Assembly: GCA_050331235.1 (NCBI GenBank)
Contig: JBHJHA010000011.1
Coordinates: 64,001 to 128,000 of the forward strand
Direction of reading: 5' to 3'
DNA length: 64,000 bases
Source of the DNA: Leptolyngbyaceae cyanobacterium
Lineage (GTDB): Bacteria > Cyanobacteriota > Cyanobacteriia > Phormidesmidales > Phormidesmidaceae
Shown: one piece after another, positions 50,710 to 64,000 of the stretch
How positions within the stretch are numbered: position 1 is the stretch's first letter
Layout: each line of letters begins with the position of its first letter
Translations under genes and position numbers: made by a program
The notes under the pieces: model-generated
What the model was told of the DNA's origin: nothing
The model's input: the letters and a program-made list of their open reading frames with translations, nothing else
Database searches by the model: none

Positions 50710-53016
50710 ATGTCAAATAGCGGCAATTCCTCCCAAGTAGCCAATCAACTTGCCGAATACGCTAGCAAGGTTCTCCAGCCCGGTGGAGTTGCCGTTGGCG
50801 GAGCCTATGGTCTCTGGGAACTATTCGTTCAGGATGATGCGGGGAAAGCAATCGCCGCCGCTCTCATTGGGTTTTGCATCTCCTATGGCGGGCATTTACT
50901 CAAAGATTGGCATCAAGGCAATCAAAAACGGATGCAGTCGGCGGGTGCCGCTATAGAAAAAGTCTTCAGTGGCACGATTGAGCAAATGTTGGCCAAGGCC
51001 ACCAAAGCTGAGGATGCCTACCTATTGCTGCAAGTGCTAGATTGTCGCGACTATCGCACCGCCGGCATGGGCGATCGCGGTCAGGGCATTTTAGAATTGC
51101 CAGAAGTCTTTGTCCCACTTGAGCTCGATTCGAGTTCCATTCCAGCGGGGTTTGAGCAGTTGGCACGATTGCCGGATCTAGAGCAGTGGCAGCGCGAACT
51201 CGATATTTGGTACTTCCTGCGTCAAGCAACGGACAATCGCGCTTATCGCCAACTGGCCATCATTGCCTGGGGTGGTTACGGCAAAACCACCCTGCTCAAG
51301 TATCTGACTTATATCTTCGGCACCAGGCAACACGAACAGTACAACGTCCCATTTCTGATCCCGATGTTGTTGCCATTGCGGCAATATCGCGATGCGCTCA
51401 CCGCCGAACCGCCCCCCGACTTATCCGGATTAGTGCAACAACAGCGACTGAAGCAACTGCAAGAATTAGATGTCGACAACAAATTAGCCCGTTTACCCGC
51501 GACCTGGGCAGTGGATGTGTTGCGCAATGGCAAAGCGCTGGTGATGCTGGACGGGTTCGATGAAGTGCCCAATACAGAACGCCCTGCCCTCAGCCAGTGG
51601 CTACATCGGCAAATGCAGCGCTTTAGCGAGTCTACCTTTATCCTGACCTCGCGCCCCACGGCTTACAAGCAAGATTTTGCGCAACCGTTGCGGACCAAGC
51701 TATGGGTGCGGCCCTTTGAGCCCAAGCAGCAAACCCGGTTTGTTGAGCAATGGTATTTTTGCCAGGAACGGCAAGCCCGAGGCGGACGCAACACCCCCGA
51801 AGTGCGGCGAGCCGCCAACCAAGGTGCTGCCAATTTACTCGCCCAGGTGCAAGACCCCCATCGCCCCGAACTGTCTAAACTCGCCAAAAATCCCCTCTTG
51901 TTGAATCTTCTTGCCATTTATCACCGCAATGGCGAACAAGGGGAAGAATTGCCCCGCCAACGAGCGGAGCTATATCAGGATATTTGCCAACTGCATTTGA
52001 AGAAGCGACCAGAATTTCGCAAAATTGCCCTGCCGCTGCCGCCCAATGCCCGCCAAGAAATCTTGCAGGAAGTAGCACTCGCGATGATGCAGCGCAAACG
52101 GCGGCTGATTGAGGAAGAAGATTTGTTAGCCCTGGTGACTCAAGCCCTGGATGAAGCCAAGCATCCCATCACAGCGGCAGAATTTCTCCAACCGATTGTG
52201 GCGGTGAGCGAACTGATCGTGAAACAGGGCTTGGAAGGCTATGAATTCGCCCATCTCAGCTTTCAGGAATTTCTGGCCGCTGCCCAAATCAAAGCGCTAA
52301 AGCAGGAGGAACTGCTCTACCCCCACCTGAGCGAAGCTAACCAAACTAGTGCCAATGGCGCAGAAGAACCCTGGTGGAAGCAAACCATTCTGCTTTATGC
52401 CGCCCAACTGCAAAATCCGACTAGCCTGATTGAGGAGGCGATTCGCCAGGGGGCGACGAATTTAGCCTATGCCTGTTGGCAAGAGACGCAATATTCCCTG
52501 CCCCCCGAACTGGAAGCAAAACTGCAAACTCAGGTGCAAACCTCGCGCTACGCCAAACTGGAGGCGTTAATGCAGCAGGGCAAGTGGCGTGAGGCGGACG
52601 AGGAAACCTACCGGTTAATGATCACCACCGTAGGCAAGGAAGAGGGGCAAAGGTTTGACAGTGAAGACTTGGAGACCTTTCCCTGCGAAAACTTGAAGGT
52701 GGTCGACAGTTTATGGGTGAAATACAGCGATGGTAAGTTTGGCTTTAGTGTGCAAAAGCAAATCTGGCAAAAATGTAACCGTCCTGTAAGTGGTCGAGGT
52801 AAAGATTGGGTGCCCTTTCTAATAAAAGTTGGATGGTCCTACCCTGATGGCCGGCAAAAAGAATATGAGCTTCTCGCAGCTGATCCAGAACTATCTCCAT
52901 CAGGTGAATTTCCGAATTTTATGGTCTTCAGTCCTCCCTCTAGAAAATTGCTGCTTGCAACTTTTATGACAGACATGAAAGGAATATTTTCTCGCGCAGA
53001 AACGTGTGGTCCTTGA
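50710..53016 (+). CDS. NACHT NTPase with C-terminal GUN4-like domain
   Basis: VFVPLEL, Walker A GGYGKTT, Walker B LDGFDEV, ILTSRP, NPLLL, FAHLSFQEFLAA; GUN4 W.EADEET...FPCENL..VD.LW.KYS.GKFGFSVQKQIW. Confidence 0.88.
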   Translation: MSNSGNSSQVANQLAEYASKVLQPGGVAVGGAYGLWELFVQDDAGKAIAAALIGFCISYGGHLLKDWHQGNQKRMQSAGAAIEKVFSGTIEQMLAKATKAEDAYLLLQVLDCRDYRTAGMGDRGQGILELPEVFVPLELDSSSIPAGFEQLARLPDLEQWQRELDIWYFLRQATDNRAYRQLAIIAWGGYGKTTLLKYLTYIFGTRQHEQYNVPFLIPMLLPLRQYRDALTAEPPPDLSGLVQQQRLKQLQELDVDNKLARLPATWAVDVLRNGKALVMLDGFDEVPNTERPALSQWLHRQMQRFSESTFILTSRPTAYKQDFAQPLRTKLWVRPFEPKQQTRFVEQWYFCQERQARGGRNTPEVRRAANQGAANLLAQVQDPHRPELSKLAKNPLLLNLLAIYHRNGEQGEELPRQRAELYQDICQLHLKKRPEFRKIALPLPPNARQEILQEVALAMMQRKRRLIEEEDLLALVTQALDEAKHPITAAEFLQPIVAVSELIVKQGLEGYEFAHLSFQEFLAAAQIKALKQEELLYPHLSEANQTSANGAEEPWWKQTILLYAAQLQNPTSLIEEAIRQGATNLAYACWQETQYSLPPELEAKLQTQVQTSRYAKLEALMQQGKWREADEETYRLMITTVGKEEGQRFDSEDLETFPCENLKVVDSLWVKYSDGKFGFSVQKQIWQKCNRPVSGRGKDWVPFLIKVGWSYPDGRQKEYELLAADPELSPSGEFPNFMVFSPPSRKLLLATFMTDMKGIFSRAETCGP

Positions 53017-53154
53017 AGGATGCTGTCTCAGCCATCCCTTATCTGGTACCTGTAGTCAGGTCGTATCTGTAAATAGCAGAACCGCAATGTCAGGGGGGGT
53101 GGGCATCAAACCAACCACGCATACCCAAACGTGTTGATTCGCCTGACGGTCTTT

Positions 53155-53192
53155 GTAGGGGCGCACTACCCGCCCGACCCTGGATGCGCCCC
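53155..53192 (+). repeat. GTAG-type REP-like element upstream of the RAYT gene
   Basis: GTAGGGGCGCAC at 53155-53166; its complement arm TGCGCCCC (53185-53192) follows after an 18-nt spacer. Confidence 0.6.
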
Positions 53193-53258
53193 CCCGGCCC
53201 AACGATTCGCAGCAGACTGGTTGGGGAATCCTGGCCTTATTCCCAGTCGCCCATGCCC

Positions 53259-53852
53259 ATGCCATACAATCCCGATAAACACCACCGTCGGTCCATTCGC
53301 CTCCAGGGCTATGACTATTCATCCACCGGGGTCTATTTCATCACCCTCTGCACCTTTCAACGTCAGTGCCTATTCGGAAAGATCATCGACGGCACCATAC
53401 AATTGAATACATTTGGCCAAATCGTTGCAGAGGAATGGCGGCAATCCAGCAGCATCCGGCAGGAAATTGAATTTGGTCAATGGGTCATCATGCCGAACCA
53501 CCTACACGGCATTGTGTTGATTAATCCCGTCGGGGCGCACAACCGGGTAGGGGCGCACGGTCGTGCGCCCCTACGGATGGGAATTGCACACCGCAAACCC
53601 CGATCGCTGTCATCATTCATTGCCGGATTTAAATCTGCCACCACCAAACGCATCAATGCCGCCCGCAATTCGCCCAGAACCCCGGTTTGGCAACGCAACT
53701 ATTACGACCACATCATCCGCAATGAAGCATCACTGCAAAGGATTCAGCAATATATTCAAAACAATCCTGCCACCTGGCAAGATGACCAACTAAATTCGTC
53801 TAATCATCAAAGGTTTAGCAGCCGAGAGGCTGAAAGCGATCATCCACAGTGA
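53259..53852 (+). mobile_element. REP-associated tyrosine transposase (RAYT; IS200-like Y1 HUH nuclease)
   Basis: RRSIRLQGYDYS..G.YFITLCT, MPNHLHGI (HUH), WQRNYYDHIIRN, YIQNNP (catalytic Tyr). Confidence 0.9.
53529..53574 (+). repeat. In-frame REP copies inside the RAYT gene
   Basis: Half copy GTCGGGGCGCAC (53529-53540) plus perfect 13-bp-stem palindrome GTAGGGGCGCACG-GT-CGTGCGCCCCTAC (53547-53574), translated VGAH-NR-VGAHGRAPL. Confidence 0.85.
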
Positions 53853-54009: not shown

Positions 54010-54540
54010 ATGACTCATCATTTTCATAAAATAATTTCGTGGCTAACAGCCATGGTGTTGATGGGGATATCCCTACTCAGCCCGATTTTGTCAACCTCAC
54101 CTGCTCTGGCAGCCATCCGACAGTTAGAAGAGGCCACAGGGCAAATTGTTTATCAGTCGCGTCAGGCAATCTCGGATCAGCATGGCGATCGCTGGCAGGT
54201 AATCGCCTTCAATCGCCTACGCCCGGATGGCAGTAGTCACGTTTATCTACGACTTGTCGGGTTTCCCGGCAGCGTGACTATTGATCGCACCCAACCACTC
54301 CAGTTAATTAGTTCGATGCAGCAGATTTTCACGGTTCAGGATGCATCCAGCCACATCTTTACCAATGAGTCAGCCCCCGAACCCCACATTGGGCAGTATG
54401 ACTTGCAAGCGATCGCGTCACAGTTGCCGACCGCCATACCGATGCAGCTAGTCCTGCCGACCGTGGGTCAAGAGGCCATTGTGCTGGCCCTATCCCCTGG
54501 GCTAATTCAAGAATGGCAAACTGTAGCAACCCATAACTGA
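54010..54540 (+). CDS. DUF3122-like secreted cyanobacterial protein
   Basis: Signal ending PALA, EEA.GQ..YQSRQ...DQ.G..WQ.IAF, LRLVGFPG, GQYDL. Confidence 0.7.
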   Translation: MTHHFHKIISWLTAMVLMGISLLSPILSTSPALAAIRQLEEATGQIVYQSRQAISDQHGDRWQVIAFNRLRPDGSSHVYLRLVGFPGSVTIDRTQPLQLISSMQQIFTVQDASSHIFTNESAPEPHIGQYDLQAIASQLPTAIPMQLVLPTVGQEAIVLALSPGLIQEWQTVATHN

Positions 54541-54666: not shown

Positions 54667-55380
54667 ATGGATACGAAAGCACTTTTAGCCCGGTATCAAG
54701 CCGGCGATCGCGATTTCTCTCAACTCAAGCTGTTAGAAATTGAATTGCTCCAGCTCATGTTCAACCAGGCAAATTTCAGTCACTCTGACCTGCGCCAGTC
54801 ACGACTAGGGCGCACCCGTTTCATCCAGGCTAACTTTGAGCAAAGCGATTTGAGCGAAGCGCTCTTGTGGGGCAGCAACTTGAGTGAGGCCAATTTAGTG
54901 CAAGTCCGGTTGCGAGAGGCCGATTTGAGCGGTGCGGTCTTGACTAAGGCTAATCTGACCGAGGCCCATCTGCTAAAGGCAAGTCTCAATGGCACTAACT
55001 TCAGAGGGGCCAACCTGTCCGGAGCCTGCCTTATCGAAGCGGATTTGCGATCGGCGGCGGATCAGCAAACTAACTTGCAAGGGGCCAATCTACAACGAGC
55101 CAATCTCAGCTATAGCAAACTGAACGGAGCCAATCTGCAACGGGCTGATTTGTCCCATGCGATCCTCTGTCGCGCTCACCTGAGTATTGATTATCGGCCT
55201 GGAGCAGTGCCCACTGACCTCAGCAAGACCAATTTGCAGGGGGCTGATTTAAGCTACGCCGACCTAAGCGGCGCGAATCTAGCCGAGGCCAATCTGCAAG
55301 GGGCCGACTTGACTGGAACAATATTGAGCCAGGCAAACCTGCGCCATACCGTCATGCCAGATGGTAAGCGCCACGATTAG
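54667..55380 (+). CDS. Pentapeptide repeat protein
   Basis: LLARYQAGDRDFS, many ANL/ADL repeats, MPDG terminus. Confidence 0.92.
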   Translation: MDTKALLARYQAGDRDFSQLKLLEIELLQLMFNQANFSHSDLRQSRLGRTRFIQANFEQSDLSEALLWGSNLSEANLVQVRLREADLSGAVLTKANLTEAHLLKASLNGTNFRGANLSGACLIEADLRSAADQQTNLQGANLQRANLSYSKLNGANLQRADLSHAILCRAHLSIDYRPGAVPTDLSKTNLQGADLSYADLSGANLAEANLQGADLTGTILSQANLRHTVMPDGKRHD

Positions 55381-55728: not shown

Positions 55729-56799
55729 CTATCGCACCTCATTTCTGGTGGCTTCGGCATCGATGGGACGCATCCAATAAAGCCTTAGCAAATCGCCCAC
55801 AGTGCCGGCAATGAGAGAGGCTTTACGGAGAAATTTCCACAGCTTAGGAGCTGAACCTTGCGCCATGTCTTTGAGCTTCAAATTCCGCTCTGCACAGCGA
55901 TCAAGACGCCGAAAAAATTCGGGATGATCGACGTTGAGGATGACCGGAAACGCCCGGACCGAAGTACTGTTCGTCTCTCGCACGACGGCTCGATCGAACT
56001 CAGTTGCATTTAGCCCCAGCATCTCGTAGAAGTCGGTCCGCTCATGAACCGTCAAGCTGTGGGTGGCAAACACTGACAACAGGAAAAATCGGCTCCAGAG
56101 GCGAGACTGCCAGGTATTCCACATGTGGGATTGCGATCGCAACAGCGCTTTGAAGATGTCGCCATGGCGGTTTTCATCCTGACACCAGCTCTCAAAGTAA
56201 TTGAACAGCGGATAAAAGCGGTTTTCAGGATGCTGTTCTAGATGTCGGTGAATCAGGATATAGCGCCAGTAGCCAATTTTCTCGGAAAGATAGACCGCGT
56301 AGATAACCCACTCCACCGGGAAAAAGGTGTAAGTGCGCCTTTTCGTCAGCTTGGCCAAATCTAGCGAAAGGCCAAAATCTGCCATAGCTTTATTCAGAAA
56401 TCCTGCGTGACGAGCTTCATCACGGGCCATAAGTGAGAAAATTTCCGCGAGGAGGGGATTGCGACCCTTCAGTTTACGAGATAGCTCTTTGAATAGGAGA
56501 AAACCCGAAAACTCTGAGACGCAGGAGCGCTCTAGATAATCAATGAACGCCTGACGCTCTTTACCTTGGATGGCGTCCCAGTTGCCTTGAAAGGATTCGT
56601 CTCGCACAAAGTGATCGCGGTTGTAGTCAGCCCGCATTTCTGCCAGCATCGCCTCGAGGTCGACTTCTCCAGCTGACAGGTCTAGACTTGCCGCTTTTTC
56701 AAAGTCAGTTGTGTAAAAGCGAGGGGTGAGAAGAGTCTCTTCAACCGCAGATTTTGAGCTCGATACCGACTTTGCAGATGATGACGCAGTACTGACCAT
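55729..56799 (-). CDS. acsF: Mg-protoporphyrin IX monomethyl ester oxidative cyclase, ChlAII/AcsF2 (low-oxygen) type
   Basis: ETLLTPRFYTTDF, EFSGFLL, DEARHAG, LSEKIGYWRY, DENRHGD; the EWVIY and FATHSLTV segments resemble ChlAII rather than ChlAI as I recall them; SD GGAGG before ATG 56799. Confidence 0.92.
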   Translation of the reverse strand: MVSTASSSAKSVSSSKSAVEETLLTPRFYTTDFEKAASLDLSAGEVDLEAMLAEMRADYNRDHFVRDESFQGNWDAIQGKERQAFIDYLERSCVSEFSGFLLFKELSRKLKGRNPLLAEIFSLMARDEARHAGFLNKAMADFGLSLDLAKLTKRRTYTFFPVEWVIYAVYLSEKIGYWRYILIHRHLEQHPENRFYPLFNYFESWCQDENRHGDIFKALLRSQSHMWNTWQSRLWSRFFLLSVFATHSLTVHERTDFYEMLGLNATEFDRAVVRETNSTSVRAFPVILNVDHPEFFRRLDRCAERNLKLKDMAQGSAPKLWKFLRKASLIAGTVGDLLRLYWMRPIDAEATRNEVR

Positions 56800-56822
56800 G
56801 CAGTCCTCCAAGCGAAATAGCT

Positions 56823-56844
56823 TTGATAACCAAACGGCTATCAA
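56823..56844. promoter_or_regulatory. Palindrome TTGATAACC-AAAC-GGCTATCAA just upstream of acsF
   Basis: 9-bp arms with one mismatch, between an extended -10 on the minus strand (TGATATAGT, 56863-56855) and the SD. Confidence 0.5.
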
Positions 56845-57056
56845 CTAGAAACAGACTATATCACTTTGGCCCCTAGGCGCGATCGCCCCTTTAAAGCTTC
56901 AGCTACGCAAACGGACCTAATCTGCCATCGCTGGGGCTATCAAAAGGTCTATTTTGAAGATTTAGAGACTTTTCAAAAAGTTTCTTCATCCTGCCATACC
57001 CAGTCCTTCTCGCCTGAGCAAGATATGAAGTTTTGACAACAAAAGCCATCATGAGG

Positions 57057-57080
57057 TTTCATAACCGTAGAGTAATGAAA
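57057..57080. promoter_or_regulatory. Palindrome TTTCATAACC-GTAG-AGTAATGAAA upstream of the FabX-like gene
   Basis: 10-bp arms with two mismatches; shares ATAACC-N4 with 56823-56844. Confidence 0.45.
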
Positions 57081-57267
57081 GCAATATCCCCAGCTAGCGA
57101 ATTCGACTTGCAGGCTATAAGCAGGCTGTCCTCAAGTGCTGCGGCTGTCTACTCTCCCAGTCGGTTTAGCCACACTCCGGGCCCACGGGGTGCATCCCGT
57201 GGTTGCCCTGCCAACCGCAAATGCGTCTGACAAATTCACTCTAAACCTTTCATTTAATCTTGCCCCT

Positions 57268-58371
57268 ATGACATCACTACCGGCATTGAAAATTGGTCAA
57301 CACACGGCTCGCTATCCCATCATCCAGGGAGGGATGGGCATCCGCATTTCAGGGGCGAGCTTAGCCGCTGCCGTCGCCAATGCGGGCGGCATTGGGATTA
57401 TCTCGGCAATAGGGTTGGGGCTGAGATCGCCCTATTTCGATCCGTTAGAACCCAGCCCCAAAAAGCGCCACGAAAACCTTCTAGAAGCTAACCGTTTAGC
57501 GCTGATTGACGAGCTCCAGAAGGCTCGAAAAATTAGCCCTCACGGCATTATTGGGATCAATGCGATGGTGGCCGCTCACGGCTACGAAACGCTCGTAAAA
57601 ACTGCGGCCCAGCATGGCGCAGATTTGATCATTTCCGGCGCAGGGCTACCGCTACCGCTGCCAGGGCTGACCGCCGAATTTCCTTCTGTCGCGCTGGTGC
57701 CGATTGTCTCTAGCGTGCGCACCGCCAGAATCATTTGTCAGAAGTGGCAGCGTCAGCACGATCGCTTACCGGATGGGATCGTGGTCGAAAATCCTCGCTC
57801 TGCTGGCGGGCATCTTGGGGCAAAGGTTGATCAGTTGGAAGACGAGACTTTAAACGCCTCAACTGTTATTCCCAACCTGGTTAGTTATCTCCAGCAAGAC
57901 CTGAAAGTCGATATCCCCATCGTCGCCGCTGGCGGCGTCTGGGATCATGCCGACATTTTGCAAGCCCTAGCTTTAGGAGCGAGCGGTGTACAAATCGGCA
58001 CGCGGTTCATTACGACTGAGGAATGCGACGCCGATCGCCGCTATAAGGAATTTCATTTACAAGCGCAGCCTGAGGATGTCGTACTGGTCTCCAGTCCTGT
58101 GGGACTGCCGGGGAGAGCCTTGCGTAATCCCTTCGTAGACAAGCTCTTGGCCCAGGACGCTGAAATCACCCAGGAGCCCTGCCTGGCAAACTGCTTAAAA
58201 GCCTGTCAGTATCGCGATCGGCGCGAAACCTACTGCATTTTGCGGGCCTTGGATCAGGCATCACAGGGTGAAATTGAGTCAGGGCTCATTTTTGCCGGTA
58301 GCAACGCCGGTCAAGCCAAGCGCATTCTACCCGTTGCGGAGCTCATGGCGGAATTAACGCTCTCTTCGTAA
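57268..58371 (+). CDS. Nitronate monooxygenase / FabK-superfamily flavoprotein, FabX/UfaA-like with [4Fe-4S] cysteines
   Basis: LKIGQHTARYPIIQGGMG, SGAGLP, AGGHLG, AAGGVWD, GASGVQIGTRF, SPVGLPGRA, C-terminal CLANCLKAC...YCI; start set at MTSLPAL. Confidence 0.85.
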   Translation: MTSLPALKIGQHTARYPIIQGGMGIRISGASLAAAVANAGGIGIISAIGLGLRSPYFDPLEPSPKKRHENLLEANRLALIDELQKARKISPHGIIGINAMVAAHGYETLVKTAAQHGADLIISGAGLPLPLPGLTAEFPSVALVPIVSSVRTARIICQKWQRQHDRLPDGIVVENPRSAGGHLGAKVDQLEDETLNASTVIPNLVSYLQQDLKVDIPIVAAGGVWDHADILQALALGASGVQIGTRFITTEECDADRRYKEFHLQAQPEDVVLVSSPVGLPGRALRNPFVDKLLAQDAEITQEPCLANCLKACQYRDRRETYCILRALDQASQGEIESGLIFAGSNAGQAKRILPVAELMAELTLSS

Positions 58372-58377
58372 ACGGAG

Positions 58378-59019
58378 TTGACGATGATATTTTCTACGCC
58401 TCCGGCCGAACCGGGGTCAGCGCTGCCAGCGATCCCCGCTGACCATCTCAACCTCATGGGATACGTTGATCGCTCAGAGGTAAATGGGCCTGGCTATCGC
58501 GCCGTCGTCTGGGTGCAAGGGTGCCGGCGGGCCTGCCCGGGTTGTTTCAATCCTGAATCTTGGTCTTTTGCGCCCAATCAGATTGGGCCTGTTGACAACA
58601 TCCTTGCCCGCATCTTGTCTGAACCCCGCAACGACGGGGTGACTTTTTCCGGCGGGGAACCGTTTTGGCAAGCTCCGGCGTTAGCTAAAATTGCTCGGTG
58701 GGTCAGGCAGCAAGGACTCACTGTCATGTCGTTTACTGGCTTCACTTTGGAGCAATTGCGGGCAAAAGCGGCCCCCGCAGGAACCAACGCCTTGTTAGCA
58801 GAGTTAGACGTCTTAATCGACGGCCCCTACGTAGAGTCATTGGCGATTCATGATCCAACTTCGCCAGTTTCCTCTAAAAATCAGCACGTGAATGTGTTCA
58901 ACCCGGATCTAAAAGACCGCATCACTTGGGCCAGCGATCAGGTAGAGGTGCATATCCTAAAGGATGGTAGCCGCATTGTGACAGGGTATCGAGGAAGTCT
59001 AAAGGATGGGCAGCAATGA
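58378..59019 (+). CDS. NrdG-like small radical SAM protein
   Basis: VNGPGYRAVVWVQGCRRACPGCFNP (CxxxCxxC), GVTFSGGEPF, DVLIDGPY. Confidence 0.88.
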   Translation: MTMIFSTPPAEPGSALPAIPADHLNLMGYVDRSEVNGPGYRAVVWVQGCRRACPGCFNPESWSFAPNQIGPVDNILARILSEPRNDGVTFSGGEPFWQAPALAKIARWVRQQGLTVMSFTGFTLEQLRAKAAPAGTNALLAELDVLIDGPYVESLAIHDPTSPVSSKNQHVNVFNPDLKDRITWASDQVEVHILKDGSRIVTGYRGSLKDGQQ

Positions 59020-59047
59020 CGTTGGTCACGATCAGTTCTCTCAGGGC

Positions 59048-59611
59048 ATGAGCAATACTCACCCCTGGCAAACCCGCGATCGCATCCTGCAGCTTCAGAC
59101 TCGATGGTTCACGCTGATCGGTGAGCATCTGGAGACAACGCCGGGCACTGTCCTGGAATATTGGCGGATCGAAAAGGTGGATTCTGTGATTGTGCTGCCA
59201 ATTTGGCGGCAGCAGTTAATTTTGCCAGTTGCGACCTATCGGCCCGGCGTGGGCAAGTCCACCCTAGATTTTCCTGGCGGACGATGCCCCGAAGACCAGC
59301 GTCCGGCTCAGGCGGCGATATCCATCTTGCAGCGAGAGTTAGGCGTTGTTGAAAACGCCATCGATCATCTGGTGCCGCTCAACTCAGCCGGATGGGCGGT
59401 GAACAGTTCGTTTTCTAACCAGCGGCTCTACGGCTTTGTAGCGCATTTACAGTCCGCCAGTGACATCCCTGAAGCCGGCATCGAAACGACCTATCCGGCA
59501 GACTCTCAGGGCATCCGGTCATTGCTGCAGGTGCTGGAATGTTTGCAATGCCGGTTAGTGCTCCGAGAATGGCAGGCACGATATTTAGAAAAGGAACCGT
59601 CAGTAGACTAA
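59048..59611 (+). CDS. Nudix-fold protein with degenerate Nudix box
   Basis: YRPGVG..TLDFPGG...AA...L.RELG; start uncertain (59006 or 59048). Confidence 0.7.
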   Translation: MSNTHPWQTRDRILQLQTRWFTLIGEHLETTPGTVLEYWRIEKVDSVIVLPIWRQQLILPVATYRPGVGKSTLDFPGGRCPEDQRPAQAAISILQRELGVVENAIDHLVPLNSAGWAVNSSFSNQRLYGFVAHLQSASDIPEAGIETTYPADSQGIRSLLQVLECLQCRLVLREWQARYLEKEPSVD

Positions 59612-59649: not shown

Positions 59650-61038
59650 CTAAACGACCTCAAAGCCTGCTGATTTCCAAGCGCTCATACCACCTAAGAC
59701 GTTGATCACCTCAGCCCAATTTTGCTGCTGAAGCAAACTTGCTGCTACCGATGCCCGGTATCCGCTACCACACACCACTGCGACCGGGCGCTCTTTGGGG
59801 ACTTCATCCAATCGCTTCGGCAGCTCCGCCCCGGTAATGTGAATCGCATTTTCAATGTGTCCGGCATTCCATTCCCCAATCTGACGCACATCTAGCGTCA
59901 GCAAATCAGTATTGCGCTGCTGCTGTTCTCGCAGGGTGTGTACCGTCCACTGGGTCAGCAGCGCCAGCTCTTTTGCCGCAACTCGCCAAGCCATCATGCC
60001 CCCCGCTAACCAGCCCTGGGGCAAATCGTAGCCAATTCGCAGCAACTGCCAGCAAACCTCCCAAAGGTCTTGAGGGCGCTCCAGCACCAAAATTAGCGGC
60101 GTATCTGGTGGCAGCACGGAACCAGCCCAGGTAGCAAAGGATGAACCAAGCCCCACATTCACGGCCCCGGGAATATGATTTGAAAAGGCTTCGGGCGATC
60201 GACAGTCCAACACAATTGCCCCCTGCTGTCGCCATTGGTCAAACTGACTCACGGTTAGCGGGGAGGGATCGGTAAGGACTCCGAGTAACGAGGGCCCTTG
60301 CTGATTAGCCTGACGCATACGGGGCCAATAGGGCGGCACGGCAGGCAGCTCAGACAGATCCATACACTGCTGGGTAAATTCGTCTTGGGCCGCAAGATTT
60401 GCCAGCATTTTGTTCATGCGGCGCTCGTAGCCAATCGTGGTGGAGAGGCGACTGCCAATGCTACCGCCGCAAAGCGAACCGGCCACATGGGTGGGGTACA
60501 CCTGCACATAATCTGGCAGCTTGAGAATTTTCTCTTGCAGGGTGTGACACAGCTGTCCGGCGTGCTTGCGAATGTCGTCTTCTGAACCGAGCAGATCGGG
60601 ACGGCCCACGTCATCCACTAATAGAGCGCCCCCAGACAGCAGCAGCACGGGTTCTTCTCCGCGATCGCGATCGGTGACCAGCCAGCTCATATGCTCTGGC
60701 GTGTGTCCTGGGGTTTGTAGCGCTTCAAAAACAATTTCCCCCATTTCTAGGCGATCGCCATCACTCATGGCGCGAATGGGATAGTCCAAGTCGGCCCGAG
60801 CACTGCCGATGAGCTGAACGTTGCCTCGCTCTGGCAGTTCACAGATCCCTGTGAGGTAGTCATTATGCTGGTGTGTATCCGCTGCATATCGAATCTGCAT
60901 CCCCTGAGCTTGGGCCGTTTCAAAGTAGATATCGACATCGCGGCGCACATCCAGGACTAGCGCTTCGCCAGTTGTTTCTGATCCCACAAAGTAGGAAGCG
61001 TGGCCTAAGCTTTCGAGATAGAACTGTTTAAAGAACAT
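59650..61038 (-). CDS. MBL-fold + tandem rhodanese protein (CstB-like persulfide dioxygenase-sulfurtransferase architecture)
   Basis: LGHASY, DTHQHNDY, TPGHTPEH, VGRPDL, PTHVAGSLCG, C-terminal rhodanese VCGSGYRA and GGMSAW; start set at MFFKQF. Confidence 0.88.
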   Translation of the reverse strand: MFFKQFYLESLGHASYFVGSETTGEALVLDVRRDVDIYFETAQAQGMQIRYAADTHQHNDYLTGICELPERGNVQLIGSARADLDYPIRAMSDGDRLEMGEIVFEALQTPGHTPEHMSWLVTDRDRGEEPVLLLSGGALLVDDVGRPDLLGSEDDIRKHAGQLCHTLQEKILKLPDYVQVYPTHVAGSLCGGSIGSRLSTTIGYERRMNKMLANLAAQDEFTQQCMDLSELPAVPPYWPRMRQANQQGPSLLGVLTDPSPLTVSQFDQWRQQGAIVLDCRSPEAFSNHIPGAVNVGLGSSFATWAGSVLPPDTPLILVLERPQDLWEVCWQLLRIGYDLPQGWLAGGMMAWRVAAKELALLTQWTVHTLREQQQRNTDLLTLDVRQIGEWNAGHIENAIHITGAELPKRLDEVPKERPVAVVCGSGYRASVAASLLQQQNWAEVINVLGGMSAWKSAGFEVV

Positions 61039-61140
61039 GGTTGCGTCCCAAATATCGCAAGAAAATTGTTCCAGCATGACCGGGGCAGAGAGTTGGCGCA
61101 GCATCAGAGACAGGCACAGTCTGAACCCACGGTCGTGTAG

Positions 61141-61602
61141 CTATGCTGATGGTTCGGTCTTGGAATGGTGCTCGATGTAGTGCACAAAGAACTGCTTCAT
61201 CTGAGGATGGGCATCGCAGTCAAAGCCGTTTTCCTGGCCTTTTGCCATCGCTGCTTCAGCACCCATATTGTTCCGCGTTGCCATATATATCGGCGCCATG
61301 GCCCCCGATCTCATGCCACTTTTACAGTGCGTCAGGGTAGGTTTCGGCAGTTCATCTAAGGTCTGCATCACCTGGTCAGCCAATTCCTCCGTCATGTCGC
61401 TAGGGTTGACCGGAATATTTTCGTAGGTCATTCCAGCCTGTTCAACCTGTGTCGGTTCATCAGACAAAGTGCCCGTTTCCTGGGGCGATCGCAAATTCAA
61501 GACCGATTGAAATCCAGCATTGGCCACCTGCTGAATCTGCTCGGGGCTGAGTTGACAGTCGGCAACGGCAATATCAGCGCTCAGGGATTTAACAAAGCTC
61601 AT
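61141..61602 (-). CDS. DUF442 / PTP-like sulfurtransferase
   Basis: GFQSVLNLRSPQE, Y.NIPV, HCKSGMRS loop; start set at MSFVKS. Confidence 0.82.
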   Translation of the reverse strand: MSFVKSLSADIAVADCQLSPEQIQQVANAGFQSVLNLRSPQETGTLSDEPTQVEQAGMTYENIPVNPSDMTEELADQVMQTLDELPKPTLTHCKSGMRSGAMAPIYMATRNNMGAEAAMAKGQENGFDCDAHPQMKQFFVHYIEHHSKTEPSA

Positions 61603-62275
61603 AGTTTTCTTGAGTTGATTCAATACATTCTTTTGTCTCTGCAATCAGCACATGGGCTAAAACTCAGTGCTGTCCTCACCTGTGGGAGCCCCAGAAGCTT
61701 TGCTGGCAAGCAAAACAAACCAAGGCGTCCATCATGATTCAAAGCTTGACGTGACTATCTGACAGGCCTCCTCATCGGAATAATCGGCAATTTTGCCACC
61801 GTTCAGAAACCGCAAAGTTTTTACCGAAAAAATCTCAGGACCATAGACAGCTCTCACAATCAATGACGTTGGCGCCAAAGTAGTCAACATCGCCTCAGCA
61901 ACTAGGTTTAAGGGTCTACCGACGCGGGCCTTTTAACTTCCAGCAAAAGGAAGAGCAGTGTTTGCAACCTAGGACAGATACCTGTTTTATTGCGATCGCC
62001 CGTTAGCCCGTCATCAGTTTCCTGAGCCGTAGTATTCGTCAGGTATTTTGCCTTGGAAGCCAATGTAGTTATAGATGTTGCAAAACAGCAATGGGGATTA
62101 GGAACTCCACGAAAGTGAGCATAAATACAAACGAACTGGGAGCGCGGCGGCGGCTTCATAAAGGATGACGCCAAGGGGAAAATGATTTCTGGGAAAATCA
62201 CAAACCCTAAACAATAACTACTGATGCTGCAGGTAGTGTAAGGCCAGCCAGCAACTCAGGACCGAGAGAGCAACT

Positions 62276-63055
62276 TCACCGCTGAATCAACACAAAGATT
62301 GCGACTGCCAGCACAAAATAGCCAAACCCTTTCTCAAGCTGCTTGGCACTAACAAATCGATTCAAATAAGATCCCACCAAAATTCCTAAACAAGCGGCGG
62401 CGGCAAAGGGAAGCAGTAAGCCCCAATCAATCGGCACGTGACCAAAATATCCAGCAAATCCGGTCACAGATTTGAGGGTGAGAATAATCAGTGATGTTCC
62501 CACAGCCTCTTTCATTGGGGTTTTGCCCAACAACACCAGCGCCGGAATAACGAGAAAGCCACCACCAATGCCAATAAATCCGGTGAGTACCCCTACAACT
62601 AAGCCTTCTACTGGAATAGCCAACCATTTTGGCACGATGGCGTGCTGATCATGAGGCTCAACCTTCTCTGAAAGGGCTTCAGATTTTCCGGAGCCTTTGC
62701 GAATCATCATGACCGAGGCGACCAGCATCATGATGCCAAAGGTGACAAGCTGAATCGTTGGGGTAACAAACGGGAACGATGCGAGCCTTGCTCCCAGATA
62801 GGCACCAACCATGGCAGCCGGGGCAAACATCGCAACAATACCGAAATTGACATTACCCTGCCGCCAGTGGGGAATGGCTCCAATCAAACTGGCTACCCCA
62901 ACGATTACCAGCGTCATGGCGAACGCTGATTTGGCAGGTACTGCCATGATGTAAATCAGCACGGGTGCAGCCAGGATCGAACCGCCACCGCCAATAAGTC
63001 CGAGACTGATTCCAATACAAACAGCCAGCAAATACCCAACAACGGTGATTAACAT
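62276..63055 (-). CDS. TauE/SafE (TSUP) sulfite exporter family protein
   Basis: GLIGGGGSIL..P and GFIGIGGGFLVIPAL repeats, AVGTSL; start set at MLITVVG. Confidence 0.92.
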   Translation of the reverse strand: MLITVVGYLLAVCIGISLGLIGGGGSILAAPVLIYIMAVPAKSAFAMTLVIVGVASLIGAIPHWRQGNVNFGIVAMFAPAAMVGAYLGARLASFPFVTPTIQLVTFGIMMLVASVMMIRKGSGKSEALSEKVEPHDQHAIVPKWLAIPVEGLVVGVLTGFIGIGGGFLVIPALVLLGKTPMKEAVGTSLIILTLKSVTGFAGYFGHVPIDWGLLLPFAAAACLGILVGSYLNRFVSAKQLEKGFGYFVLAVAIFVLIQR

Positions 63056-63208
63056 AGGCTGACATTTCCCAATTAGGGTTAAACGTGGCGATCGCGGCAT
63101 TCGTGGCATGACCAAGGGCATGATTTGCATCACCCAACTGCCATTTCGAAAAAGACACTAAGGTTCGCAAAAAATAGGACGTTCCCAAGAATGTCCTTCC
63201 AGATCGAC

Positions 63209-63778
63209 CTATTGGTTCCAGGGCATCTGAGCTAACAGCATCCCCAAAGCGCAGGTATCAGTAATCCCAGCAAAGACCAGGCCAACACCGACAAAGCCGC
63301 TAAGCAGCAAGAACCAAGGCGATATGAGCGCCCCTAAAATAGTGCCAATCACCACAAATGAACCCGCAACAATTTGTACCTGGCGGAATATACTAATGGG
63401 CGCGTTCTTGCCGGTTTGGGTAGGATAGTTTGCTGCTTCCCAAGCCAGTAATCCGCCTTCTAAATGCGTGACGTTTGAGACTCCCGCCTTGAATAGTTTC
63501 TGGGCGGCCTGAGTAGAGCGAGAGCCAGTTCGACAGTACAAAACAGTCGATTTATCAGCGTCAAAAGGAACACTGTCTGGGTCAAATTTTGACAGTGGCA
63601 TTGGTATCGAACCTGGAATCTTTTTGCCGGCATGCTCAACGGACTCACGCACATCCACTAAATTGACGGATTGCTGATCGAGCCGTTTATTCAGATCTAC
63701 CGGACTCATTTCATACAATTCCTGCTGCCCCACCCAAGGCGATAACGGGCTCGGGTCTGCTTTACTCACACGGGTCAT
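63209..63778 (-). CDS. Rhodanese + DUF2892 membrane sulfurtransferase (YgaP-like)
   Basis: DVRE, YCRTGSRS, LEGGLLAW; RQVQIVAG...FAGITDTC..GMLL..MPWN. Confidence 0.9.
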   Translation of the reverse strand: MTRVSKADPSPLSPWVGQQELYEMSPVDLNKRLDQQSVNLVDVRESVEHAGKKIPGSIPMPLSKFDPDSVPFDADKSTVLYCRTGSRSTQAAQKLFKAGVSNVTHLEGGLLAWEAANYPTQTGKNAPISIFRQVQIVAGSFVVIGTILGALISPWFLLLSGFVGVGLVFAGITDTCALGMLLAQMPWNQ

Positions 63779-63824
63779 TCTCGTCTCCTCATCTAAGTAC
63801 TTGCTAAGAATGAATTGTTGGCAT

Positions 63825-64000
63825 CTAGCTCGTCACAGGTACGCTGCCGCATCGCTCATTAGCCGGAACTGCTTCCATGATCTTCTTTGGATCTGGCAGG
63901 TCCAAATTTTCCATAAACTCAATGAACTGATCACGCGTCCGCCCCGCAAAGCGAGGATTCCACGCCTTTTCTTCGGCAATAGTGGATACGCTATGTCCTC
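63825..64000 (-). CDS. ETHE1-type persulfide dioxygenase, C-terminal part (start outside window)
   Basis: Not in ORF track. Manual translation GHSVSTIAEEKAWNPRFAGRTRDQFIEFMENLDLPDPKKIMEAVPANERCG, a typical type-I PDO tail. Confidence 0.85.
   Translation of the reverse strand, partial: GHSVSTIAEEKAWNPRFAGRTRDQFIEFMENLDLPDPKKIMEAVPANERCGSVPVTS

Follow-up and report, generated by a model that had tools for sequence, protein, structure and literature searches.

Lipid unsaturation in cyanobacteria is generally attributed to O2-dependent desaturases. The need for lipid unsaturation at low O2 is real, since the low-O2 desaturase gene desF of Synechococcus 7002 is essential under microoxia (PMC4500134). 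A different kind of route relies on the FabX family of flavoproteins. Neisseria gonorrhoeae needs its FabX homologue UfaA (NGO1024) to make unsaturated fatty acids anaerobically, with an electron acceptor given as unknown (PMC11300592), and a survey of FabX relatives at more than 50% identity covers 7 phyla, cyanobacteria not being listed in its legend (PMC8626469, Supplementary Fig. 30). We analysed a 64,000-nucleotide stretch of a Leptolyngbyaceae cyanobacterium (the window; assembly GCA_050331235.1, contig JBHJHA010000011.1, positions 64,001 to 128,000), in which the gene of a 367-residue FMN/[4Fe-4S] flavoprotein (57268..58371, forward strand) faces the cyclase gene acsF2 (55729..56799, reverse strand) across a 468-bp divergent spacer. 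The flavoprotein is of the FabX type and is neither a FabK nor a nitronate monooxygenase (NMO). Judged from its sequence and context, it would on balance serve as a hypoxia- or sulfide-induced acyl-ACP (acyl carrier protein) dehydrogenase/isomerase that backs up the O2-dependent desaturases.

Identity of the flavoprotein

The gene starts at ATG 57268, the listed reading frame from GTG 57136 being probably over-extended. The four best sequences in the Protein Data Bank (PDB) were all H. pylori FabX (E 8e-75, 255 bits), followed by FabK at 93 bits, and the chains of solved NMO and nitroalkane oxidase structures reached at most 56 bits over partial alignments. An AlphaFold model, obtained from a 62-row alignment with a predicted local distance difference test value of 94.8, gave a template modelling (TM) score of 0.89 with H. 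pylori FabX and at most 0.72 with FabK. The corresponding Z scores were 51.4 for FabX (root-mean-square deviation 2.2 over 357 residues), 37.5 for FabK and about 30 for the P. aeruginosa NMO.

The functional residues named for FabX in PMC8626469 were then located by alignment. The AGGH motif carrying His182, together with Cys305, Cys309, Cys313 and Cys323, aligns with His182 and Cys300, Cys304, Cys308 and Cys320 of H. pylori FabX. Besides these, the FMN-binding residues Glu175, Asn99, Gln240 and Thr243 of FabX, together with Ser273, have identical counterparts. We gathered 381 homologues, and the four cysteines are present in every one of the 361 that are full length. Among the 12 acyl-tunnel residues named in the same paper, six are identical, four are conservatively replaced and two fall in a poorly aligned stretch. 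The resemblance to FabX, including the GGH histidine and the four C-terminal cysteines, which a preliminary description of this DNA had noted, is thus borne out by residues, best PDB match and predicted fold alike.

A tree of 80 rows, rooted on five FabK rows, was computed with IQ-TREE after the removal of 41 rows (4 fragments or frameshifted, 37 near-duplicates) and the addition of 4 plasmid proteins. H. pylori FabX, Neisseria UfaA and NMO are not among these rows; the first is represented by six Campylobacterota rows, L076 among them at 565 bits to H. pylori FabX, and UfaA by two plasmid proteins from Burkholderiales. All 35 cyanobacterial rows formed one clade (100/99), nested in a clade (100/100) with the six Campylobacterota, two betaproteobacterial and clostridial rows and apart from FabK. 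Three rows from non-photosynthetic members of the same phylum lay outside the cyanobacterial clade, and the two Burkholderiales stand-ins formed a long branch of their own. In the phylogenetic comparison proposed by the preliminary description, the protein therefore falls with FabX and not with FabK, and by PDB scores NMO is not its best match.

Identification as FabK was rejected: the protein scored 122 bits on the FabK model TIGR03151, far under the cut-off of 453 (control L130, 489 bits), and it has the cluster cysteines and belongs to a separate clade. The names given in source databases, along with the Pfam match PF03060, would make it a true NMO involved in nitroalkane detoxification. 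We regard this as extremely improbable, given the poor and partial alignments to solved NMO and nitroalkane oxidase chains, the fact that PF03060 also spans FabX and FabK, and the reported absence of the cluster domain from other characterised family members (PMC8626469). A deeper clade of Patescibacteria, Fusobacteria and clostridial anaerobes (L107-L109, L113, L114, L116, L118-L123, L126, L127, L129) has the four cysteines with a short FabK-like helix, and looks intermediate between FabK and FabX.

Regarding the carrier-protein dock, the least secure part of the likeness to FabX, we compared the FabX residues K152, K159, R160, R164 and T130 of the alpha-7 dock. R151 and K159 are kept in the window protein, whose alpha-7 helix has a net charge of +4. 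Residues outside this helix divide the 361 homologues into subgroups A (271, including the window protein) and B (90). In subgroup A, R151 is present in 266 proteins, and K/R159 and K/R162 in 264 each, a strong conservation of basic residues that is as expected for an ACP dock. Subgroup B, a nested group (10 tree rows, 100/100), has a mean helix net charge of 0.4 versus 5.1, and all 90 of its proteins have Lys where FabX has Tyr277, with His182 and the cluster cysteines kept. Its members include L050, L051, L053-L059, L061 and L062 as well as P0284, P0352, P0360 and P0368; two of them (P0368, P0352) come from Anabaena strains, and one strain has both types (P0061 and P0360). From these residues, subgroup B probably acts on another substrate.

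Low-oxygen islands, expression and a shared palindrome

Expression was taken from published RNA-seq data for Acaryochloris marina, in the accessible rows of Table S3 of PMC5295598. This strain encodes a subgroup A protein of 366 residues (P0044, ABW25515.1) that is 68% identical to the window protein. Its apparent gene, AM1_0459 ('2-nitropropane dioxygenase', 366 codons), equated with it by length, chromosome and annotation, had values of 4 in the control, 113 under microoxia and 10 under hyperoxia (log2 fold change 4.5, about 23-fold). It lies inside a run of induced genes comprising psbA1, rhodanese, Rieske, sqr, arsR, pentapeptide, acsF, ho2 and hemN (log2 fold changes 3.4-7.1). Low-O2 transcriptomics had been suggested as a check, and this apparent counterpart was indeed induced by microoxia; with the FabK/NMO comparison above, two of the three outcomes that the preliminary description named as refuting its reading did not occur. 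In the same rows the delta-9 desaturases AM1_0821 and AM1_1527 changed by -0.8 and 0.0, and an omega-3 desaturase by 1.3. The terms 'nitropropane', 'fatty acid' and AM1_0459 are all absent from the main text of that paper.

With a match threshold of 1e-30, a fabX-like gene was found in 26 of 401 genomes of the phylum, this one included, and in 21 of the 175 genomes of families f1-f30. Among the 21 other same-class genomes that have a fabX-like gene, all but one (20) also have hemN, compared with 100 of 175 overall, kin not being independent in this comparison. We then examined neighbourhoods of about 9 kb at 30 other cyanobacterial loci, some of them congeneric and some cut by contig ends. The neighbours of the fabX-like gene were HetL-like (13 loci), ArsR (10), ho2 (6), psbA (6), hemN (5), acsF (4), petC (4), sqr-like (3), bchE (2) and NrdG-like (2) genes, and a strict low-O2 marker lay within this span in 10 of the 30. 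The low-oxygen locus of the preliminary description thus stands insofar as low-oxygen neighbours recur across genomes, although the NrdG-like and Nudix-like genes that it had grouped with the flavoprotein are not steady partners.

L044 and L045 share one gene order: DUF3122, hetL-like, acsF (reverse), ho2, hemN, fabX-like, nrdG-like. The window shows the same order minus ho2-hemN. In L059 the order is chlR-like, acsF, ho2, hemN, desaturase, fabX-like, the last being of subgroup B. The pairing of psbA with a fabX-like gene recurs in two plasmid loci and one further genome locus. Of eight D1 proteins encoded next to fabX-like genes, six carry Ala286 in place of the Thr seen in the ordinary D1 of the genome; Ala at this position marks the microaerobic D1. 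Plasmids of Pseudanabaena galeata and Aulosira laxa (L142, L143) carry a psbA-fabX-like island with palindromes. In two cyanobacteria (L067:5736-7814, 752 bits on TIGR02026; L068:5951-7918), genes for a bchE-type O2-independent cyclase directly precede the fabX-like gene. Outside the cyanobacteria, a betaproteobacterial relative faces U32-peptidase/SCP2 (ubiUVT-type) genes in a denitrification cluster; this arrangement is seen on Cupriavidus necator pHG1 (L141:4239-8137), where a four-Cys FabX-family gene faces such genes, with nosZ on one side and a Crp/Fnr regulator on the other. No homologue from Geitlerinema PCC 9228 appeared among the named matches in the best 120 of each search, which is uninformative on absence.

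A palindrome with the consensus ATAACT-N4-AGTTAT was found in 16 of 31 upstream regions, against a shuffle mean of 0.9; the count is partly circular because the consensus was drawn from those same regions. A matrix trained on the 16 sites, all from other genomes, was used to scan the 4.79 million positions of this genome. The best palindrome of the genome lies before the sulfur-handling cluster, just beyond the window end (64618 window-equivalent, C11:128618-128639); it precedes a persulfide-dioxygenase-like operon and adjoins an ArsR gene. The two candidate ArsR operators of the spacer ranked 14th (56823..56844, score 11.7, core ATAACC-N4-GGCTAT, 24 bp before the acsF2 ATG) and 26th (57058..57079, score 10.3, 189 bp before the fabX-like ATG). 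The first has a counterpart at the matching position (27 bp) before acsF in L044 and L045.

When each locus was scored with itself left out of the training, sites scoring at least 10 preceded the fabX-like gene in 20 of 30 loci, arsR in 8 of 10, acsF in 3 of 4, ho2 in 3 of 6 and psbA in 5 of 5 (2 of which share a spacer with the fabX-like gene), compared with 9 of 282 other genes. In loci lacking the palindrome, the fabX-like gene is often inside an operon. Over this genome, such sites stand before 22 of 3828 open reading frames (ORFs), three of them in this island. The ArsR gene (about 64974-65378 window-equivalent, C11:128971-129378) encodes a Cys pair in alpha-2 and alpha-5, the helices being assigned by eye, and has sulfurtransferase neighbours. 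These two features are the criteria given for persulfide-sensing ArsR repressors such as SqrR, BigR and HlyU (PMC10054925). The protein scored 37 bits against 155 on the BigR model; similar ArsR proteins occur in 135 of the 401 genomes, and this genome has two. As palindromes precede arsR itself, ArsR binding may be proposed, and the palindrome is likely the operator of a persulfide-type ArsR.

The ChlR motif TTMCC-N3/4-GGWAA, which as published may be loose, was not found in the spacer with 0-1 mismatch; one site with two mismatches overlaps the second palindrome, and 19 exact matches occur elsewhere in the genome. A sigma-70 scan gave one promoter-like site versus 2.7 expected and was uninformative. 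A ChlR-like MarR/HxlR gene, 62% identical to that of L059, lies at C91:5747-6172 of this genome, in which ho2 and hemN were not detected.

Turning to the other genes of the island, acsF2 scored 511 bits on TIGR02029 and probably starts at ATG 56799, within a listed ORF spanning 55729-56844. It faces the flavoprotein gene and two further genes across the common spacer, at the positions first described, and it adjoins neither ho2 nor hemN, also as first described. By pairwise identity only, acsF2 is 63-80% identical to four acsF genes that adjoin ho2/hemN in other fabX-like loci and 58% identical to a second acsF on contig C8. Since it is closer to the former, the ChlAII-type label that it had been given fits.

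Downstream of the flavoprotein gene are an NrdG-like radical SAM [4Fe-4S] protein (58378/58384..59019, forward; PF13353, CxxxCxxC) and a weakly Nudix-like protein (59006..59611, forward; NudE model E 6.6e-6; PF00293 17 bits, cut-off 21.1). Because the gaps are short (6-12 bp) and one pair overlaps by 14 bp, the three genes would form an operon. The NrdG-like protein scored 102 bits on TIGR02491, under its cut-off of 126, and no NrdD match was found in the assembly. NrdG-like activases occur in 86 of the 401 genomes, and in at least seven genomes such a gene lies within 8 kb of hemN. Both downstream genes were considered as fixed partners and rejected, an NrdG-like gene following the fabX-like gene in 2 of the 30 other loci and no Nudix-like homologue clustering in any of them.

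On the other side of acsF2 are a DUF3122 gene (54010..54540, forward; PF11320), in the same position as in the L044/L045 islands and clustered in 3 of the 30 other loci, and a HetL-like pentapeptide-repeat gene (54667..55380, forward; NF047416 303 bits, cut-off 260). The A. marina pentapeptide gene AM1_0464, in the same position as the latter, was induced by microoxia (log2 fold change 5.8), and the HetL-like protein may have a low-O2 role unconnected with heterocysts. The stretch immediately before the island (50710-53852) holds a NACHT-GUN4 fusion gene followed by a REP-associated tyrosine transposase. Beyond the Nudix-like gene, a sulfur-handling cluster on the reverse strand (59650..64000) runs past the window end, with genes for a metallo-beta-lactamase (MBL)-rhodanese, a Blh-like sulfur transferase, TauE, a rhodanese-YgaP protein and a persulfide-dioxygenase-like MBL protein.

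The ho2-hemN pair appears to have been deleted from this island. Elsewhere in the assembly, which is 95.5% complete, neither gene was found: there was no TIGR00538 match, and the sole heme oxygenase is 50% identical to an island ho2. Orthologues of sqr and bchE were likewise not found by tblastn in this 95.5% complete assembly. A faint ho2 trace in the spacer (57187..57261, forward), possibly a remnant of the deleted block, matched two of the island ho2 proteins in tblastn at E values of 0.02 and 0.08. Its profile score was matched by 1 of 300 shuffles with three families tried and is weak; hemN and bchE profiles over the spacer did no better than shuffles. These losses would fit a decaying island whose flavoprotein works as proposed elsewhere and is barely used here, as would the scores of the two spacer palindromes, which lie under those of most training sites. 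We consider this very unlikely, however: the reading frame is unbroken and still encodes every catalytic and cluster residue, many close homologues are 73-76% identical, the end branch of 0.28 is ordinary, and the missing genes may simply lie in the unassembled part.

Proposed role and competing explanations

Under the backup role that we favour, low O2 or sulfide would raise persulfide levels, releasing the ArsR repressor from its palindromes and opening acsF2, the fabX-like operon and the sulfur genes. The basic helix (R151, R154, K159, R162) would be the landing site of the acidic acyl-ACP, and His182/FMN would take two hydrogens from the medium-chain acyl group, with the cluster storing electrons and the product isomerised to the cis-3 form. 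For a C10 substrate, elongation of this product by the single FabF would lead to 16:1 delta-9 and 18:1 delta-11. The electron acceptor would most likely be trace O2, as in H. pylori; a quinone or a photosystem-I-linked carrier could take over in anoxia. As an acceptor of these electrons, ferredoxin is too reducing, whereas plastoquinone is not. Turnover in anoxia may be possible, because the Neisseria homologue works anaerobically.

The genome has fabZ, fabI and one acpP-fabF pair, and no fabA was found in the assembly. It also holds nine desaturase-family genes. Three of these are DesC-like, so a FabX-type route would be a backup. The desaturase-independent low-O2 route of the preliminary description therefore keeps its FabX-type enzyme and its low-O2 context but becomes auxiliary to the retained desaturases, and 'desaturase-independent' need not mean 'O2-independent'.

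Several observations weigh against the proposed role. In the fatty-acid genes, the three DesC-like desaturases are kept, and two of these share 58-60% identity with the one encoded in the L059 low-O2 operon, where the desaturase gene directly adjoins a fabX-like gene of subgroup B. A 'fatty acid desaturase' of A. marina, AM1_4659, is itself induced (log2 fold change 2.2), and AM1_0459 was equated with P0044 by length, chromosome and annotation. As to context, 20 of the 30 loci, some of them cut by contig ends, have no strict low-O2 marker nearby; 80 of the 100 hemN-positive sampled genomes have no fabX-like gene; and no fab gene was found among 94 Pfam-annotated neighbour proteins. In the protein, H. 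pylori Arg164, the loss of which abolishes ACP binding (PMC8626469), aligns with Gln163, the conserved Arg (R162) standing one residue earlier; this column is also variable among non-cyanobacterial homologues. FabX Thr130 and Tyr277 are replaced by Leu129 and Leu280. FabX needs O2 in vitro, where it makes superoxide (PMC8626469). Finally, subgroup B has no basic helix and yet stays in the same islands, so that island context alone need not imply ACP binding.

This last point, together with the Lys at the Tyr277 position of subgroup B, the missing fab neighbours and the out-of-register Arg164, is also what would be expected of a redox protein with the FabX fold whose substrate is not a membrane fatty-acid precursor but some other thioester or small molecule linked to sulfide or redox stress. 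The palindrome that the gene shares with rhodanese, sulfur-transferase, sqr and psbA genes points in the same direction. We nevertheless judge this rather unlikely for the window protein, which belongs to subgroup A, with its strongly conserved basic helix, and has a hydrophobic tunnel; moreover, unsaturated fatty acids are the product of both FabX-family members whose function has been reported (PMC8626469; for NGO1024, PMC11300592).

An acyl-ACP binder could also catalyse the opposite reaction, reducing enoyl-ACP with electrons from ferredoxin or flavodoxin and so backing up FabI under hypoxia. The fold family is shared with FabK, and reduced ferredoxin is abundant in cyanobacteria, which counts for such an activity. 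In addition, when F. nucleatum FabX was overexpressed, a FabK inhibitor had a minimal inhibitory concentration of 3.1 instead of 0.4 ug/mL (PMC11091888). The same paper, however, argues that FabX cannot replace FabK, and the window protein is far from the TIGR03151 cut-off. Since fabI is present and needs no O2, its low-O2 backup would have no clear purpose, and we hold the reverse reaction to be unlikely.

Beyond the backup role, a wider reading is offered tentatively, as possible but doubtful. About one eighth of oxygenic cyanobacteria would have a FabX-type route to unsaturated fatty acids without desaturases, even in full anoxia, with electrons passing to the photosynthetic chain. Its control would lie with a regulon of a persulfide-sensing ArsR, distinct from that of ChlR, to which low-O2 psbA, sqr, petC, acsF2 and ho2-hemN would belong as well. 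'Bacterial-type' anaerobic unsaturated fatty-acid synthesis was reportedly described in Oscillatoria limnetica in the 1980s, and a FabX-type enzyme would be behind it if this wider reading is true. It would also name the enzyme of the 'other mechanism' postulated for strains without chlR (PMC4500134).

If true, a FabX route would explain membrane fluidity at very low O2 in mat and sulfide-tolerant strains, and it predicts chain-elongation isomers such as 18:1 delta-11, with a bearing on lipid biomarkers. Subgroup B would then represent a second, ACP-independent activity, genetically accessible in Anabaena. A. marina offers a cultured system for the electron acceptor of anaerobic FabX/UfaA enzymes, and the palindrome a direct handle on a low-O2/sulfide regulon without ChlR.

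Relation to described systems

Both the enzyme family and the low-O2 islands have been described before. A search over titles and the starts of abstracts, with subscription journals missing, returned no paper on a FabX-like enzyme in cyanobacteria. None of the searched terms occurs in PMC5776472, though its strain carries the gene (P0114). In their accessible portions, PMC8002359 names only desaturases, and PMC12691678 and bioRxiv 10.64898/2026.05.15.721447 do not treat a FabX-type enzyme in cyanobacteria. The linkage in cyanobacterial psbA-sqr-arsR islands was noted in PMC5061849, where 'fatty acid', 'desaturase', 'dioxygenase' and 'monooxygenase' do not occur in the accessible text and no operator is named. 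SqrR, for its part, binds ATTC-N8-GAAT, unlike the window palindrome.

Compared with H. pylori FabX (PDB 7E1Q; PMC8626469), the window protein shares the fold, His182, the FMN-site residues, the four cysteines, most tunnel residues and the basic alpha-7 helix, at about 37% identity by structure alignment. FabX is essential and the sole route in H. pylori, whereas here its relative belongs to an inducible island in a genome with a full set of desaturases. The likeness to UfaA is drawn through the two Burkholderiales plasmid stand-ins and not through the Neisseria sequence. FabK has the FMN TIM barrel and the catalytic His in common, but has no cluster cysteines and a short alpha-7 helix. The locus also resembles the acsFII-ho2-hemN-desF operon of Synechococcus 7002 (PMC4500134), which also joins a low-O2 acsF to a lipid-unsaturation gene: in L044 and L045 the fabX-like gene directly follows hemN, in the place of desF, and in L059 it follows the desaturase. 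Unlike that ChlR-controlled operon, the window has neither ChlR motif nor ho2 and hemN and carries a different palindrome, and DesF is an O2-using di-iron desaturase where the window encodes a FabX-type flavoprotein.

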